Virus record (IMG/VR): IMGVR_UViG_3300025398_000930
DNA from: an uncultured virus (IMG/VR IMGVR_UViG_3300025398_000930)
Lineage: Duplodnaviria > Heunggongvirae > Uroviricota > Caudoviricetes
Reading direction: 5' to 3' (one strand)
Length of the DNA stretch: 64,000 nucleotides
Part shown: positions 20,207 to 55,967 of the stretch, in pieces
Numbering within the stretch: the stretch's first letter is position 1
Layout: each line of letters begins with the position of its first letter
The notes under the pieces: model-generated
Seen by the model: only the letters and a program-made list of their open reading frames with translations
Told to the model about the DNA's origin: nothing
The model's database searches: none
Made by a program: the position numbers and the translations under genes

Positions 20207-20226
20207 TATAACACCTAAGTAAATTT

Positions 20227-42843: not shown

Positions 42844-43257
42844 ATGAATAGCAACTTAAAACTGTTAGCAGAACAATATCAGTTAATTTTAGAAAAACGA
42901 GTTCAACCTGATCCTACTACAGAAGAATCACTTAAACAATTTTTAAAAAAACGTTTAGCTGGAGCAGAAAAAATTGCTAACAGTTCTGAACATAAAGGTG
43001 GGTTTGCAACACTAACAGCAATACATTACGAGGCTAAACTTAAGCCGTATAAAGAATGTAGTAAGATGGAAGATGATCCTAATAATGACTGCGATACATG
43101 TAACGCTCATTATAAGAAAATGGTAAAAGAATTGCATGCTAAATTAGCAGACATAGATAAGTTATCTCAAAAAGAATTTCAATCTCTTATGGGAGAGATG
43201 GAAGTGTATGGGGAAGTTTATATACGGGCTACTAAACCAAAAAGTTTAAAAATTTAA
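42844..43257 (+). CDS. Hypothetical protein, possible internal head protein
   Basis: 137 aa, N-terminus KLLAEQYQLILE, TAAGTA upstream. Confidence 0.6.
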   Translation: MNSNLKLLAEQYQLILEKRVQPDPTTEESLKQFLKKRLAGAEKIANSSEHKGGFATLTAIHYEAKLKPYKECSKMEDDPNNDCDTCNAHYKKMVKELHAKLADIDKLSQKEFQSLMGEMEVYGEVYIRATKPKSLKI

Positions 43258-43259
43258 AT

Positions 43260-43335
<76 letters not shown>

Positions 43336-43337
43336 GC

Positions 43338-44003
43338 TTACTTTGTACAATGAGCTACATAATAGCCATTCCACCAAAATACTTTATCTCCTGTAATTTC
43401 TGGGCCCCAAACACCTTGTTTTGTAACTGGGTATGCTGGTAAATGTACATCGTATAATACCTTTATGCCTTTATCTCTTATAGCATCTTGTGTACCACGC
43501 TGTACCTCTTCCCAATTATAGTCATCTACTATTAATATAAACTCATTCGCCAATGTATCATAATAGTTAGCTATAGCTTTGTATTGAGATTGGTAGCTGT
43601 GCTCTCCATCATAAAGATATGTGTTGATATTTTTAATTTTAAAATCAGCTGGGTTAATACCAAAGCAATCACAATCAAGAAAGTTTACTCTATTTTCGTA
43701 ATCTAAAAACGTTCTGCAATTCTTTTGAAACTCTTGACGTGGTCCATTGAACTGAATAAAATTATCAATAGCTGTATGGTACTCAGGGGTATTGTTATAC
43801 AGTGCTGAGATAGTTGTTGATCCTTTCCATACGCCAGTTTCAAGGTACCGAGCTGTATTGCCCTGTAAAGAAATAATATTGTTAAGTAAATGCCTTATTC
43901 TACTACTGGACATACCTTCCAGATCGAGAACTTCTTGTGGTAGTTTTGAAACTCCAACGTTGGCGTTATCTACCGATTTTTTAATAATTTCTGTATATGT
44001 CAT
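43338..44003 (-). CDS. Class I SAM-dependent methyltransferase (Methyltransf_24-like)
   Basis: YLETGVWKGST, IDNF, YDGEHSY, ILIVDDYNW and WWNG. Confidence 0.85.
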   Translation of the reverse strand: MTYTEIIKKSVDNANVGVSKLPQEVLDLEGMSSSRIRHLLNNIISLQGNTARYLETGVWKGSTTISALYNNTPEYHTAIDNFIQFNGPRQEFQKNCRTFLDYENRVNFLDCDCFGINPADFKIKNINTYLYDGEHSYQSQYKAIANYYDTLANEFILIVDDYNWEEVQRGTQDAIRDKGIKVLYDVHLPAYPVTKQGVWGPEITGDKVFWWNGYYVAHCTK

Positions 44004-44005
44004 TT

Positions 44006-44572
44006 TTAGCTACTTTTGTGATGTAACCAACTATTTTCTCTATAATCAAATATGTAATTGTTAGCTCCAAAATATTGATCAATAGCACGTCTTACTGAAT
44101 CATCCTTTACGTCGTGACCACCAATATAACCGCCGACTTTTATTTTAGGAAACCATGCAACCAAGTCTTGAATAACTGCTTCAAATACATGGTTAGCATC
44201 AATAAAAACAAAATCTAAAGATTTATCAGCGTATTTAGCAGCAGCTTCAATTGAAGTACTTCTAATAGGGTTAGCATATTGTCTTACTGGTGTTGTATTC
44301 TCTAAAAATAAATTATAAACAAAATCCCCCGGGTTGTCAGGTAATTGTTTCATAAACAAACCATCTGCTACATAACCAGACCACTCGTCAACGCAATCAA
44401 ATTTAATATCTTTACCCGAGTTAGCTATTTCTACGCCCATATAAGATGCAGATGCACCCATCCAACAACCCACTTCAACAAAATGTGAACCAGACGAGTG
44501 AATAGATACCATGCCGGTATATAATGTAGGAAACGAGAACCAGCCTGGTACTTTATAGTGATAATGATCCAT
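44006..44572 (-). CDS. Class I SAM-dependent methyltransferase (Methyltransf_24-like)
   Basis: FVEVGCWMGAS, DFVFIDANH..V..D and W.PKIKVGG.IGGHD; probable start MDHY at 44572. Confidence 0.85.
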   Translation of the reverse strand: MDHYHYKVPGWFSFPTLYTGMVSIHSSGSHFVEVGCWMGASASYMGVEIANSGKDIKFDCVDEWSGYVADGLFMKQLPDNPGDFVYNLFLENTTPVRQYANPIRSTSIEAAAKYADKSLDFVFIDANHVFEAVIQDLVAWFPKIKVGGYIGGHDVKDDSVRRAIDQYFGANNYIFDYRENSWLHHKSS

Positions 44573-44585
44573 TTTATAAGATATA

Positions 44586-44774
44586 TTAACGAAATAGTTG
44601 TTTAAAATCAACAAAATCGTTTTCAATACCTTCATAGTATTTATCTTGTTTATATATCTCTAATATCCGATTGTGCTCGTAGTTAGTTGTTAATATCCAT
44701 TTAGGTTCTTCACCCTTCAACATTATAACGGTGTAATCTTTCCCGTTTTTAGATGCTCTACGTATTAAGACCAT
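44586..44774 (-). CDS. Small hypothetical protein
   Basis: 62-aa ORF 5 nt after an exact TATAAATA. Confidence 0.6.
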   Translation of the reverse strand: MVLIRRASKNGKDYTVIMLKGEEPKWILTTNYEHNRILEIYKQDKYYEGIENDFVDFKQLFR

Positions 44775-44779
44775 ATTGT

Positions 44780-44787
44780 TATTTATA
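44780..44787 (-). promoter_or_regulatory. T4-type late promoter
   Basis: Exact TATAAATA immediately after tRNA-Gln. Confidence 0.6.
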
Positions 44788-44790
44788 TTA

Positions 44791-44861
44791 CTGCCCGACC
44801 TGGATTCGAACCAGAACTAAGCGAGTCAAAGTCGCTTGTGCTGCCATTACACAATCAGGCA
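44791..44861 (-). tRNA. tRNA-Gln(TTG), CCA not encoded
   Basis: UGCCUGA/UCGGGCA acceptor stem, loop CUUUGAC, GGUUCGAAUCC T-arm; followed by UAA instead of CCA. Confidence 0.93.
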
Positions 44862-44867
44862 AAAAAT

Positions 44868-44942
44868 TGGTACCCCCATCCGGATTCGAACCGGAATACT
44901 CGCAGTGAAAGTGCGATAGACTAACCATTATCCTATGAGGGC
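44868..44942 (-). tRNA. tRNA-Glu(TTC)
   Basis: Anticodon arm UCGCA-CUUUCAC-UGCGA, T-arm CCGG-UUCGAAU-CCGG, encoded CCA. Confidence 0.95.
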
Positions 44943-45011
44943 GAAAGGGACGGGAGCATCGCACTCCCGAGAGGGTTTTGTTCCGAAAACCCCTAAAGAA
45001 GATGTACAAAA

Positions 45012-45096
45012 TGGTGGGTACACTTGGACTCGAACCAAGGAAGCCGAGAGGCAGCAGATTTACAGTCTGCCGTAATTGCCGCTATACGATATACCC
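45012..45096 (-). tRNA. tRNA-Tyr(GTA)
   Basis: Anticodon arm GCAGA-CUGUAAA-UCUGC, long variable arm, encoded CCA. Confidence 0.96.
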
Positions 45097-45103
45097 AAAA
45101 AAA

Positions 45104-45179
45104 TGGAGCCCCAGACCGGACTTGAACCGATGACAGGCTGTTTACAAAACAGCTACTCTACCAACTGAGTTACAAGGGC
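45104..45179 (-). tRNA. tRNA-Thr(TGT)
   Basis: Anticodon arm GCUGU-UUUGUAA-ACAGC, T-arm UCGG-UUCAAGU-CCGG, encoded CCA. Confidence 0.95.
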
Positions 45180-45194
45180 ACTATAAAGAACTAT

Positions 45195-45225
45195 AAAAAA
45201 ACCTTAAGCTTAATGCCTAAGGTTT
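45195..45225 (-). terminator. Intrinsic terminator (attenuator 3:4 hairpin) just upstream of tRNA-Thr
   Basis: AAACCUUAGGC-AUUAA-GCUUAAGG followed by U7. Confidence 0.8.
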
Positions 45226-45259
45226 AAAGTAAAAAACTGACTGATACTTTAGACCTTAG
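45217..45259 (-). promoter_or_regulatory. Antiterminator (2:3) hairpin of a putative attenuator
   Basis: CUAAGGUCUAAAGUA (45259-45245) pairs 14 of 15 bases with UACUUUAAACCUUAG (45231-45217), which overlaps the terminator 5' arm. Confidence 0.75.
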
Positions 45260-45326
45260 CGCCCGAATAACAACGTTCCCAATATGATTGAGTCATTGTT
45301 ATTTGCACTGTAGGTTGTTGTGTCAT
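45249..45326 (-). CDS. Putative attenuator leader peptide MTQQPTVQITMTQSYWERCYSGAKV (25 aa)
   Basis: ATG 6 nt after a TAAATA motif (45333-45338); stop codon lies inside the antiterminator 5' strand; codons match the downstream tRNAs. Confidence 0.7.
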   Translation of the reverse strand: MTQQPTVQITMTQSYWERCYSGAKV

Positions 45327-45356
45327 TAAAAATATTTACTATAGTATCGTTACTTT

Positions 45357-45653
45357 TTAGTAAACGTCAAGCTTTTTTGTCTTACCCTTAGCTTTTGGTG
45401 TAACTTTTTCAAGAAGAAGTGTTTCTTTTTTAGGTGGTGTTGCTACATTACCGTTTATTAAATCATAAATTTGTTCGGGTGTCTCTTCAACTTCCCAAAC
45501 TCCATGGGGTGGACAGTGTATAGTAGTAACGGTCTCAATTGTACCGTCATCGCGTGTAACTTTGTTGGTTATCGCGTTTACAAGAAAGTCAGTATTAATC
45601 AATACAGTTAGCCCTTTATACTGAGGAAAGGAGTTAGTCAATTTAATGATCAT
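45357..45653 (-). CDS. Hypothetical protein
   Basis: 98 aa with IKLTN..IN and W.VEETPEQI patterns; promoter immediately upstream. Confidence 0.65.
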   Translation of the reverse strand: MIIKLTNSFPQYKGLTVLINTDFLVNAITNKVTRDDGTIETVTTIHCPPHGVWEVEETPEQIYDLINGNVATPPKKETLLLEKVTPKAKGKTKKLDVY

Positions 45654-45659
45654 ATATGT

Positions 45660-45687
45660 ATAATAACAGTTCTTTTCAATAAGTCAA
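45660..45687 (-). promoter_or_regulatory. Sigma70-like promoter with 16-bp spacer
   Basis: TTGACT-N16-TATTAT with a TG extension, 6 nt before ATG 45653. Confidence 0.55.
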
Positions 45688-45936
45688 CTAAAACTTAACA
45701 TCTCCTACCCCTATGTTGTTGCCGTTGCGTTGTATAAGCAATACACGTTTTGGTAGGTTTTCTTCAGCTATAAATTTTCTTGCTATCTCTACAGCACTAT
45801 TCGAGTCGGTATATTTTGTTGCTTTATTAATATCACGCATCCATGTACCATCACTATAAAAAAGCCCTTCCTCAATAGGGTTACGAGCATTCATATATTT
45901 TATAGATGCGTCCATTACTACAAATTCTGAGTTCAT
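45688..45936 (-). CDS. Hypothetical protein
   Basis: 82-aa ORF within the minus-strand gene run. Confidence 0.6.
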   Translation of the reverse strand: MNSEFVVMDASIKYMNARNPIEEGLFYSDGTWMRDINKATKYTDSNSAVEIARKFIAEENLPKRVLLIQRNGNNIGVGDVKF

Positions 45937-55936: not shown

Positions 55937-55967
55937 AAAAAAAGCTAAGGTTTCCCTTAGCTTTTTT
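55937..55967 (-). terminator. Intrinsic terminator, bidirectional shape
   Basis: AAAAAAAGCTAAGG-TTTC-CCTTAGCTTTTTT. Confidence 0.85.

Follow-up and report, generated by a model that had tools for sequence, protein, structure and literature searches.

The 64,000-nucleotide (nt) stretch of DNA analysed here, referred to as the window (IMG/VR record IMGVR_UViG_3300025398_000930, uncultured virus), is part of a large tailed phage encoding a tail sheath, a DNA polymerase, a UvsX-like recombinase and a DnaB-like helicase. On its minus strand, a short leader region precedes a group of transfer RNA (tRNA) genes. Its sequence is tentatively interpreted as a mobile, translation-coupled attenuator cassette upstream of phage tRNA genes, a reading whose chances of being right are judged to be a little short of even. 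The initial annotation of this DNA had proposed a leader-peptide attenuator at this place. The geometry it described is real, statistically unusual (z=-5.1) and conserved in diverged relatives, and its counts for the open reading frame (ORF), the codons, the tRNAs and the pairing were all correct on re-check.

The leader contains an ORF of 25 codons (MTQQPTVQITMTQSYWERCYSGAKV, 45249..45326; this and all other features of the leader and the tRNA genes are on the minus strand). Its stop codon TAA (45251-45249) lies in strand 2 (CUAAGGUCUAAAGUA, 45245..45259), the 5' half of the putative antiterminator. Strand 2 pairs with strand 3 (UACUUUAAACCUUAG, 45217..45231) at 14 of 15 positions, with a single C.A mismatch. 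Alternatively, strand 3 can pair through 45225-45215 with strand 4 to form a predicted intrinsic terminator (45195..45225), which has an 11-bp stem (45225-45215/45209-45199), a 5-nt loop and a run of seven T (45201-45195) ending 15 nt ahead of tRNA-Thr. The 2:3 helix and the 5' arm of the terminator share 9 nt and are therefore mutually exclusive. Near the beginning of the ORF, strand 1 (ACCU..AGUGC, 45305..45315) pairs with 45262-45253, overlapping strand 2, and would serve as an anti-antiterminator. The ORF-internal hairpin reported in the initial annotation (AAUAACAAUG/CGUUGUUAUU, 45266..45303; 10 + 6 pairs), which may induce a pause or serve as a structural element, belongs to the minimum-free-energy fold together with the 1:2 outer stem and the terminator (z=-4.3; 0/200 shuffles fold as well).

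The competing helix sets this terminator apart. At eight strong terminator sites, the terminator 5' arm plus flank was paired with the 100 nt upstream, and the best duplex was compared with 500 dinucleotide shuffles; the seven sites outside the leader correspond to five loci, two of them counted on both strands. The leader duplex reached -17.6 kcal/mol, against -7.2 +/- 2.0 for the shuffled sequences (z=-5.1; 1/500 as low). The other seven sites gave z=+0.26 to +1.38, and the leader is thus alone among the eight in having a strong upstream competitor. As a terminator, it is of the same class as the other strong terminators of the phage. In the window, the 2:3 helix is favoured slightly over the terminator (-14.5 against -13.5 kcal/mol). 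Over the four variants of the leader described below, the antiterminator ranges from -14.5 to -17.5 and the terminator from -12.7 to -13.5 kcal/mol, and in all four an RNA extending to strand 3 is predicted to adopt the 2:3 helix. The contribution of strand 1 is about -10 kcal/mol for the window and L001 variants, -5.4 for L027 and, when the register is left unchanged, +0.7 for L033. An Rfam covariance search of 43000-45700 with E values up to 10 returned the five tRNAs and noise elsewhere but nothing in 45180-45345, and the leader families (Thr, His, Trp, Leu, Phe) and the T-box gave no match. A bidirectional 13-bp terminator elsewhere in the window (55938-55967, both strands), separating the DnaB-like and UvsX-like genes, shares a GCTAAGG/CCTTAGC core with leader strands 2 and 3, which hints at a common origin or at recombination.

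Relatives were searched in IMG/VR, the JGI metagenomes and the GTDB genomes, and the leader was found as four sequence variants in seven records from three lineages. The window type is shared by the window and two contigs (L004 and L005), identical over the compared stretch, with L005 cut inside tRNA-Thr; it encodes MTQQPTVQITMTQSYWERCYSGAKV and is followed by tRNA-Thr, tRNA-Tyr, a spacer, tRNA-Glu and tRNA-Gln. The L001 type (one contig) differs only in the terminator loop, has the same peptide and precedes Tyr-spacer-Glu-Gln, without tRNA-Thr. The L027/L028 type (two contigs) encodes MTQQPTVQTTITHSQWERSYLGAGV ahead of spacer-Glu only, and the L033 type (one contig) encodes MTQQTTVQTTITHTQWERSYLDAEV ahead of Thr-spacer-Glu. 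The 82-aa protein encoded next to the leader in L027 and L033 is 36-42% identical to the neighbouring protein of the window and 85% identical between the two.

The conservation of the structure was assessed from alignment A3 of these four sequences. Pairing in the terminator stem is complete (100%); 10 of the 11 pairs never vary, and the remaining one changes from G.U to A-U. Its loop exists in three versions (AUUAA, CUCAA and CUAUAAA, the last with 2 nt inserted). In the 2:3 helix, pairing reaches 95%. Changes in strand 2 are limited to A to G at two positions, giving G.U pairs, and a C to U change repairing the C.A mismatch. In the ORF-internal hairpin, 90.6% of the cells are paired, and compensatory changes turn AU into UA at 46:71 (L027 and L033) and at 55:61 (L027). 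The corresponding value for the 1:2 stem is 91.7%, with one compensatory pair at 37:82 (GC to AU in L033). Between variant pairs, 16-17 of 17 columns of strand 3 are identical, and 0 of 22 columns of strand 4 and the U-run differ. Differences are seen in 6-13 of the 42 columns of codons 9-22 and in 2-4 of the 7 columns of the terminator loop. Such uneven divergence fits selection better than uniform recent transfer. Shuffle controls were mildly exceeded, for the covariation score (shuffles as high in 5/500 and 16/500) as well as for pairs changed on both sides (113/500 and 209/500). Because there are so few lineages, the covariation is support and not proof.

The initial annotation also stated that a ribosome reaching the stop codon causes termination, while stalling further upstream allows read-through. 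This holds in silico. The variants were folded by partition function with a 29-nt ribosome footprint held single-stranded, which gives equilibrium estimates. With a ribosome at the stop codon, the predicted probability of the terminator was 1.00 in the window, L001, L027 and L033. A stall at codons 4-12 shifted the prediction to the antiterminator, with probabilities of up to 0.61 in the window, 0.99 in L001, 1.00 in L027 and up to 0.67 in L033. Without a ribosome, the terminator prevailed in the window (1.00), L001 (0.95) and L033 (0.99), and the antiterminator in L027 (0.98). As stalls at codons 15-20 leave the terminator in place in the window variant, codons 4-12 appear to be the effective sensing zone. 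In the three peptide versions, Thr and Gln occupy 5/9, 6/9 and 7/9 of these codons. The codons for Tyr, Glu and Gly in the window variant fall outside the zone where a stall would free strand 2.

The leader ORF of the window holds four Thr (three ACA, one ACT), four Gln (all CAA), two Tyr, one Glu (GAA) and one Gly (GGC) codons. Of the 24 codons in each peptide version, 8, 9 and 11 specify Thr or Gln. The enrichment for which the initial annotation had proposed a test was confirmed against the codon usage of the window itself (binomial P 0.0035 for the window type, then 0.00076 and 2e-5). At least 8/24 Thr and Gln codons were reached in 186 of 17,925 24-codon gene windows (1.0%), in 1 of 166 small ORFs and in 0.3% of composition-matched open shuffles, and the enrichment is frame-specific. 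The start of the ORF, its length of 25 codons and the UAA inside strand 2 are kept in all four variants. When the same substitutions are placed at random, such an ORF is kept in 12% (L027) and 5% (L033) of the trials, the two lineages not being independent in this test. Compared with the window type, 12 (L027) and 17 (L033) of the 78 ORF positions differ, and peptide identity amounts to 18/25 and 14/25, with the residues W-E-R and Y retained. The dN/dS values are 0.88, 0.51 and 0.29, on small counts of 8-17 substitutions per pair. Judging from these comparisons, the peptide as such is weakly constrained, which is expected for a leader peptide but equally for a non-coding region.

The start codon of the ORF resembles those of other genes of the phage. 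A TAAATA motif (45333..45338) lies 6 nt ahead of the leader ATG, a spacing kept in all four variants. TAAATA-N4-8-ATG occurs ten times in the window, at eight open ORFs of 62-354 codons, at the leader and at one spurious site. Because eight of the ten sites open real genes, the leader ATG appears to stand in a true gene-start context. Generally, the ATG of a window gene follows TAAGTA (structural genes) or TAAATA at a distance of 4-8 nt. Examples are found at 2838, 29958, 41178, 41881, 44774, 47793, 54555 and 58990 for TAAATA and, on the plus strand, at 20216, 20811, 21417 and 24657 for TAAGTA. The label "late-type" given to TAAATA in the initial annotation is not supported, as the motif precedes genes of the replication module too. 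A Shine-Dalgarno-like 4-mer is present in only 2 of 68 window genes, compared to 7.4% of random 17-mers, and its lack before the leader ATG is therefore uninformative. Genomes poor in Shine-Dalgarno sequences are typical of Bacteroidota. The gene-start motifs and the scarcity of Shine-Dalgarno sequences suggest phage promoters giving leaderless or near-leaderless mRNAs. The 98-aa gene upstream of the leader is preceded by TTGACT-16-TATTAT ending 6 nt before its ATG, an arrangement conserved in L002.

A promoter-like sequence precedes the leader. The -35-like hexamer TTGACG (45365..45370; TTGACT in L033, TTGATC in L027) is followed after 16 nt by the -10-like hexamer GATACT (45343..45348; GATAAT in L027). 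The TTGACG-16-GATACT element (45370-45343) has 9 of 12 matches to the sigma-70-like consensus, which is a consensus match only. The -35-like box is the left edge of the conserved cassette. It is conserved across lineages despite different upstream genes, and homology between lineages starts at this box, whichever gene is upstream. As the promoter-like sequence starts exactly where the lineage homology starts, the terminator would be located inside a transcription unit and not at its end. A plain terminator would make little sense in such a place, since the element sits in a transcription unit behind its own promoter-like box. In the window, the last codons of the 98-aa gene (minus strand, ending at 45357) overlap TTGACG. 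A difference in length between A6 and A7 (45357-45375, minus strand, in the window and L001:3270-3290) shifts the end of this gene, so that the window version runs into the -35-like box (…KKLDVY*) and the L001 version ends at TGA within GCTTGAC. The pattern TTGAC[GT] was also considered as a class of early phage promoters, but its 49 sites are mostly intragenic and the pattern was uninformative.

According to the proposed mechanism, transcription would begin at the leader AUG or immediately ahead of it, and a ribosome would then translate the ORF. A ribosome reaching the UAA would cover strand 2, leaving strand 3 to pair with strand 4, and transcription would end at the U-run before the tRNA genes. 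A ribosome stalled in codons 4-12 would melt strand 1 and free strand 2, allowing the 2:3 antiterminator to form and transcription to read through into the tRNA genes. The leader would report the decoding of Thr (mostly ACA) and Gln (CAA) codons and not that of the whole downstream tRNA set.

Five tRNA genes were called in this part of the window by ARAGORN and Rfam. The first gene past the terminator is tRNA-Thr(UGU) (45104..45179), followed by tRNA-Tyr(GUA) (45012..45096), tRNA-Glu(UUC) (44868..44942), tRNA-Gln(UUG) (44790..44862) and, further on, tRNA-Gly(GCC) (43260..43335). The initial annotation held that the leader senses the codons read by these tRNAs, and this claim could not be maintained. 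The same Thr/Gln-rich leader precedes Glu alone, Thr and Glu, Tyr, Glu and Gln, or Thr, Tyr, Glu and Gln. A tRNA-Thr(UGU) follows the terminator in the window type (window, L004 and the truncated L005) and in L033; it is missing from L001 and L027. A tRNA-Gln is found in the window type and L001 only. Since the leader persists without cognate tRNAs, the match between leader codons and regulated genes, a hallmark of classical attenuators, is at best partial. Among the features for which the initial annotation recommended a comparison of relatives, the short ORF is kept and pair-preserving 2:3 and 3:4 changes exist but are few, while the leader codons do not follow the tRNA content. Nevertheless, tRNA-Thr(UGU) could feed back on its own synthesis, because in two of the three lineages it is the first gene past the terminator. 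L033, which is richest in Thr codons (7), carries only tRNA-Thr from the cassette. A more specific version of the attenuator reading, considered somewhat unlikely, is a self-regulating mobile tRNA cassette. Stalling on ACA and CAA, the codons most used by the phage genes, would gate the tRNAs, tRNA-Thr(UGU) first, and supplement decoding only if the tRNAs of the host are in short supply, uncharged or cleaved. The sensing of starvation or of an anticodon nuclease, proposed in the initial annotation, is speculative.

The 69-nt gap between tRNA-Tyr and tRNA-Glu contains a two-hairpin spacer of 60 nt (44943..45002), which is also present at L027:2302-2366 and L033:1104-1169. Hairpin 1 reads GGGGUUUU-CGGAAC-AAAACCC(U/C). 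Hairpin 2 reads GGGAG-UGCGAUG-CUCCC, and its 5-bp stem and 7-nt loop resemble a tRNA T-arm. The spacer was not called by ARAGORN or by Rfam with E values up to 10, and it accompanies the leader cassette even without a preceding tRNA (L027). Possible identities are a remnant tRNA, a processing element and a small ribozyme. As for tRNA-Gly, the initial annotation had assigned it a late promoter of its own. There is no non-coding room for one, as the gene starts 2 nt past the stop codon of a 221-aa gene (43335-43340, minus strand). Other tRNA genes of this phage group also abut the preceding stop codon, namely tRNA-Pro and tRNA-Glu at a distance of 7-8 nt (L009:5335-5345, L040:2757-2765). From this arrangement, the tRNAs in this phage group are apparently cut out of mRNA 3' ends.

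Several related phages lack the leader. In L002, whose 98-aa protein is 81% identical to that of the window, its place is taken by an AT-rich hairpin, which has a T-run, and by one tRNA gene, tRNA-Trp. Six contigs (L008-L013) have a tRNA-Pro 8 nt past the stop codon. In L040, the 82-aa protein is 94% identical to that of L033, and a tRNA-Glu starts 7 nt past the stop. L043, L044 and L045 carry Glu-Gln tRNAs in the slot, and L014, L016, L017 and L019 have no tRNA within the available stretch. A covariance model of the leader (R1) scored the window copy at 197.5 bits and found one copy each in the L027 and L033 records. No copy was detected in L002, L009, L014, L016-L019, L040, L043, L045 or the whole records G004-G006, and the other window hits (E 0.012-3.8) fall on ordinary terminators. 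An exact 24-mer search of the GTDB genomes returned 0 stretches. The pattern ATGACNCARCARCCNACNGTNCA gave four hits, of which L029, an unrelated G+C-rich coding match, was dropped. Likewise, four of the seven hits of a 16-mer scan (L020, L023, L025, L026) were unrelated on inspection and dropped. In INPHARED phages, distant-mode blastn yielded only tRNA-sized matches (7-11% of the query) and no relative of the leader. None of the deposited phages is closely related to the window phage, and the nearest record (G001, 24 kb) leaves the region unmatched.

As leaderless syntenic relatives exist and no further R1 copy was found in them, the element is probably an optional, mobile insertion into a tRNA hot spot. 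The slot lies between the 82/98-aa genes and a methyltransferase-like gene (44636-45356 in the window; also L002, L009, L040, L043, L045). It contains tRNA-Pro(UGG), tRNA-Trp(CCA), tRNA-Glu, tRNA-Glu and tRNA-Gln, or the leader cassette with Thr and/or Tyr. The gain and loss of tRNAs leave clean junctions beside short TTCTTT repeats. tRNA-Glu and tRNA-Gln fill the same slot in leaderless sister phages. By this comparison, they belong to the slot, and tRNA-Thr, tRNA-Tyr and the spacer travel with the cassette. Further along, L002:4249-4614 holds an extra 121-aa gene between two methyltransferase-like genes that are adjacent in the window (44006-44635 and 43338-44003).

A number of observations speak against a translation-coupled attenuator. 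The leader is dispensable, because 11 related contigs carry tRNAs (Pro, Trp, Glu or Glu+Gln) directly after the upstream gene without it. It persists without a Thr or Gln tRNA in L027/L028, where only tRNA-Glu follows, and without tRNA-Thr in L001. Its Thr and Gln codons are interspersed (QQ and TT pairs) and lack the long runs of the his, thr and pheA leaders. The fold of L027 without a ribosome is predicted to be in the antiterminator state, and 1:2 pairing is weak both there and in L033, which uses another register. The predicted equilibrium is also finely balanced, with estimates of 0.61 and 0.99 for two variants, window and L001, that are distinguished by the loop alone. With three lineages only, the covariation amounts to very few events, the controls by shuffling are weak, and the high identity may reflect recent transfer. 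The dN/dS values, on tiny counts, fit coding and non-coding sequence alike. Moreover, a TATAGT hexamer past the U-run is conserved in all four variants and could be the -10 box of a separate tRNA promoter. A -10-only promoter could be located at this hexamer, between the terminator and tRNA-Thr. A complete sigma-70-type promoter (TAGGCA-18-TATAGT) was considered at this place and not adopted, as its -35-like hexamer varies (TAGGCC, TAAGCC) and its spacing is altered in L027 by the 2-nt loop insertion. Finally, no precedent for the attenuation of tRNA genes was found in the open-access literature searched. At the level of listings and abstracts, this literature gave no description of attenuation or leader peptides controlling phage tRNA genes.

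A rival reading is a moron-like mini-gene, consisting of a promoter, a 25-aa gene and a terminator, inserted into the recombination-prone tRNA slot, with the peptide itself as its product. The tRNAs would then be expressed by leaky read-through or from a weak downstream promoter, for which the conserved TATAGT is a candidate, and the 2:3 helix would be non-regulatory. The order of promoter, ORF and terminator is the classical moron layout, and the homology of the lineages starts at the -35-like box. Presence and absence between close phages (L033 has the cassette and L040 does not, with 82-aa proteins 94% identical), the intact ORF with its gene-like start context and the retained W-E-R and Y residues also agree with a mini-gene. 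However, it leaves unexplained why this terminator alone has a competitor helix (z=-5.1), why the stop codon lies inside this helix in all variants and why changes in strand 2 preserve pairing. In addition, the peptide, at 18/25 and 14/25 identity with dN/dS up to 0.9, is short, hydrophilic and without any match, and a strong terminator ahead of the tRNAs would cost tRNA expression. The mini-gene is held to be unlikely. An RNA-only switch with an incidental ORF, set by an antitermination protein of the phage or host, a small RNA or tRNA, temperature or the speed of transcription, is quite unlikely. The strongest signals are indeed at the RNA level (competitor helix, structure conservation, near-invariant strand 3, strand 4 and U-run), L027 is predicted to be an antiterminator by default without a ribosome, and an open frame of 25 codons is common in DNA of 36% G+C, the value of the window. 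Nevertheless, the retention of frame, length, start and stop (5-12% by chance), the frame-specific enrichment in Thr and Gln (0.3% of composition-matched shuffles) and the ATG at the gene-start spacing of the phage all argue against it. Moreover, a ribosome terminating at the stop codon would cover strand 2, and no Rfam family matches, T-box included.

A very unlikely alternative is a recombination scar or insulating terminator without conditional function, moved about as tRNA genes are gained and lost, in which quasi-palindromic CCTTAAGG-like repeats give accidental hairpins and the identity between variants stems from recent transfer. A near-palindrome underlies each of strands 2, 3 and 4, and its GCTAAGG/CCTTAGC core recurs in the 55938-55967 terminator, tRNA gain and loss occur exactly at the right edge of the block, and the distribution among relatives is patchy. 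However, the 2:3 helix runs 9 bp past the palindromic core, and substitutions preserve pairing. Loops and the middle of the ORF vary while the stems are fixed, which points to selection and not to uniform recent transfer.

If the attenuator reading is true, the leader would be the first leader-peptide attenuator known for tRNA genes and the first in a virus, and it would spread as a unit from phage to phage. The tRNA genes of phages are usually regarded as constitutive passengers which fix a codon-usage mismatch or replace tRNAs cut by defence systems. Some phages would instead gauge translation capacity in real time and adjust the tRNA supply. Leader-peptide attenuation, familiar from amino-acid biosynthesis in cells, would then also apply to the translation apparatus itself and to viruses, and a compact, portable sensor of decoding stress of ~150 nt would be available. 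Even without the ribosome as the sensor, the element would be a conserved RNA switch outside any Rfam family.

Several known systems share features with the element. Theta (minimal HDV-like) ribozymes adjoin phage tRNA genes, in hosts including Bacteroidota, and serve tRNA 3'-trailer cleavage and not transcription control (PMC10879173). Like the leader, they are conserved structured RNAs beside phage tRNA genes. They are relevant, if at all, to the spacer (45002-44943) and not to the leader.

The cassette resembles phage morons in being a self-contained unit, from promoter-like box to terminator, in a variable slot. It is present or absent between close relatives, with seven records carrying it, while 11 syntenic contigs with slot tRNAs and four without tRNA lack it. 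Unlike morons, its ORF is far shorter than typical moron genes, its terminator has a conserved competitor helix holding the stop codon of the ORF, and it is located directly upstream of same-strand genes which an unconditional terminator would silence.

T-box riboswitches are tRNA-sensing terminator/antiterminator leaders of Firmicutes. The phage element shares with them a terminator/antiterminator leader and a logic about tRNA supply. In contrast to T-boxes, it is much shorter and has a conserved ORF in place of specifier and T-box motifs, and no Rfam T-box match was obtained.

The trp, his, thr, leu, pheA and ilv operons are controlled by leader-peptide attenuators, and classical leaders have 14-32 codons. 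The phage element differs from them in that the genes concerned are phage tRNAs and not cellular biosynthetic enzymes. Thr and Gln are interspersed and do not form a run, and the codons match the downstream genes only partly. Furthermore, the phage leader has no Shine-Dalgarno sequence, its transcript is possibly leaderless, and there is no similarity to Rfam leader families. In other respects, the organization is that of the amino-acid operons. A promoter-proximal ORF of 25 codons lies in a leader of ~150 nt, with an intrinsic terminator before the first gene. The antiterminator shares the 5' arm of the terminator, the stop codon is positioned so that a ribosome would mask strand 2, and an upstream strand 1 may be able to sequester strand 2. 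Particular codons are enriched as well, and the TTVQTTITHT stretch of the L033 peptide recalls the Thr/Ile-rich thr leader.

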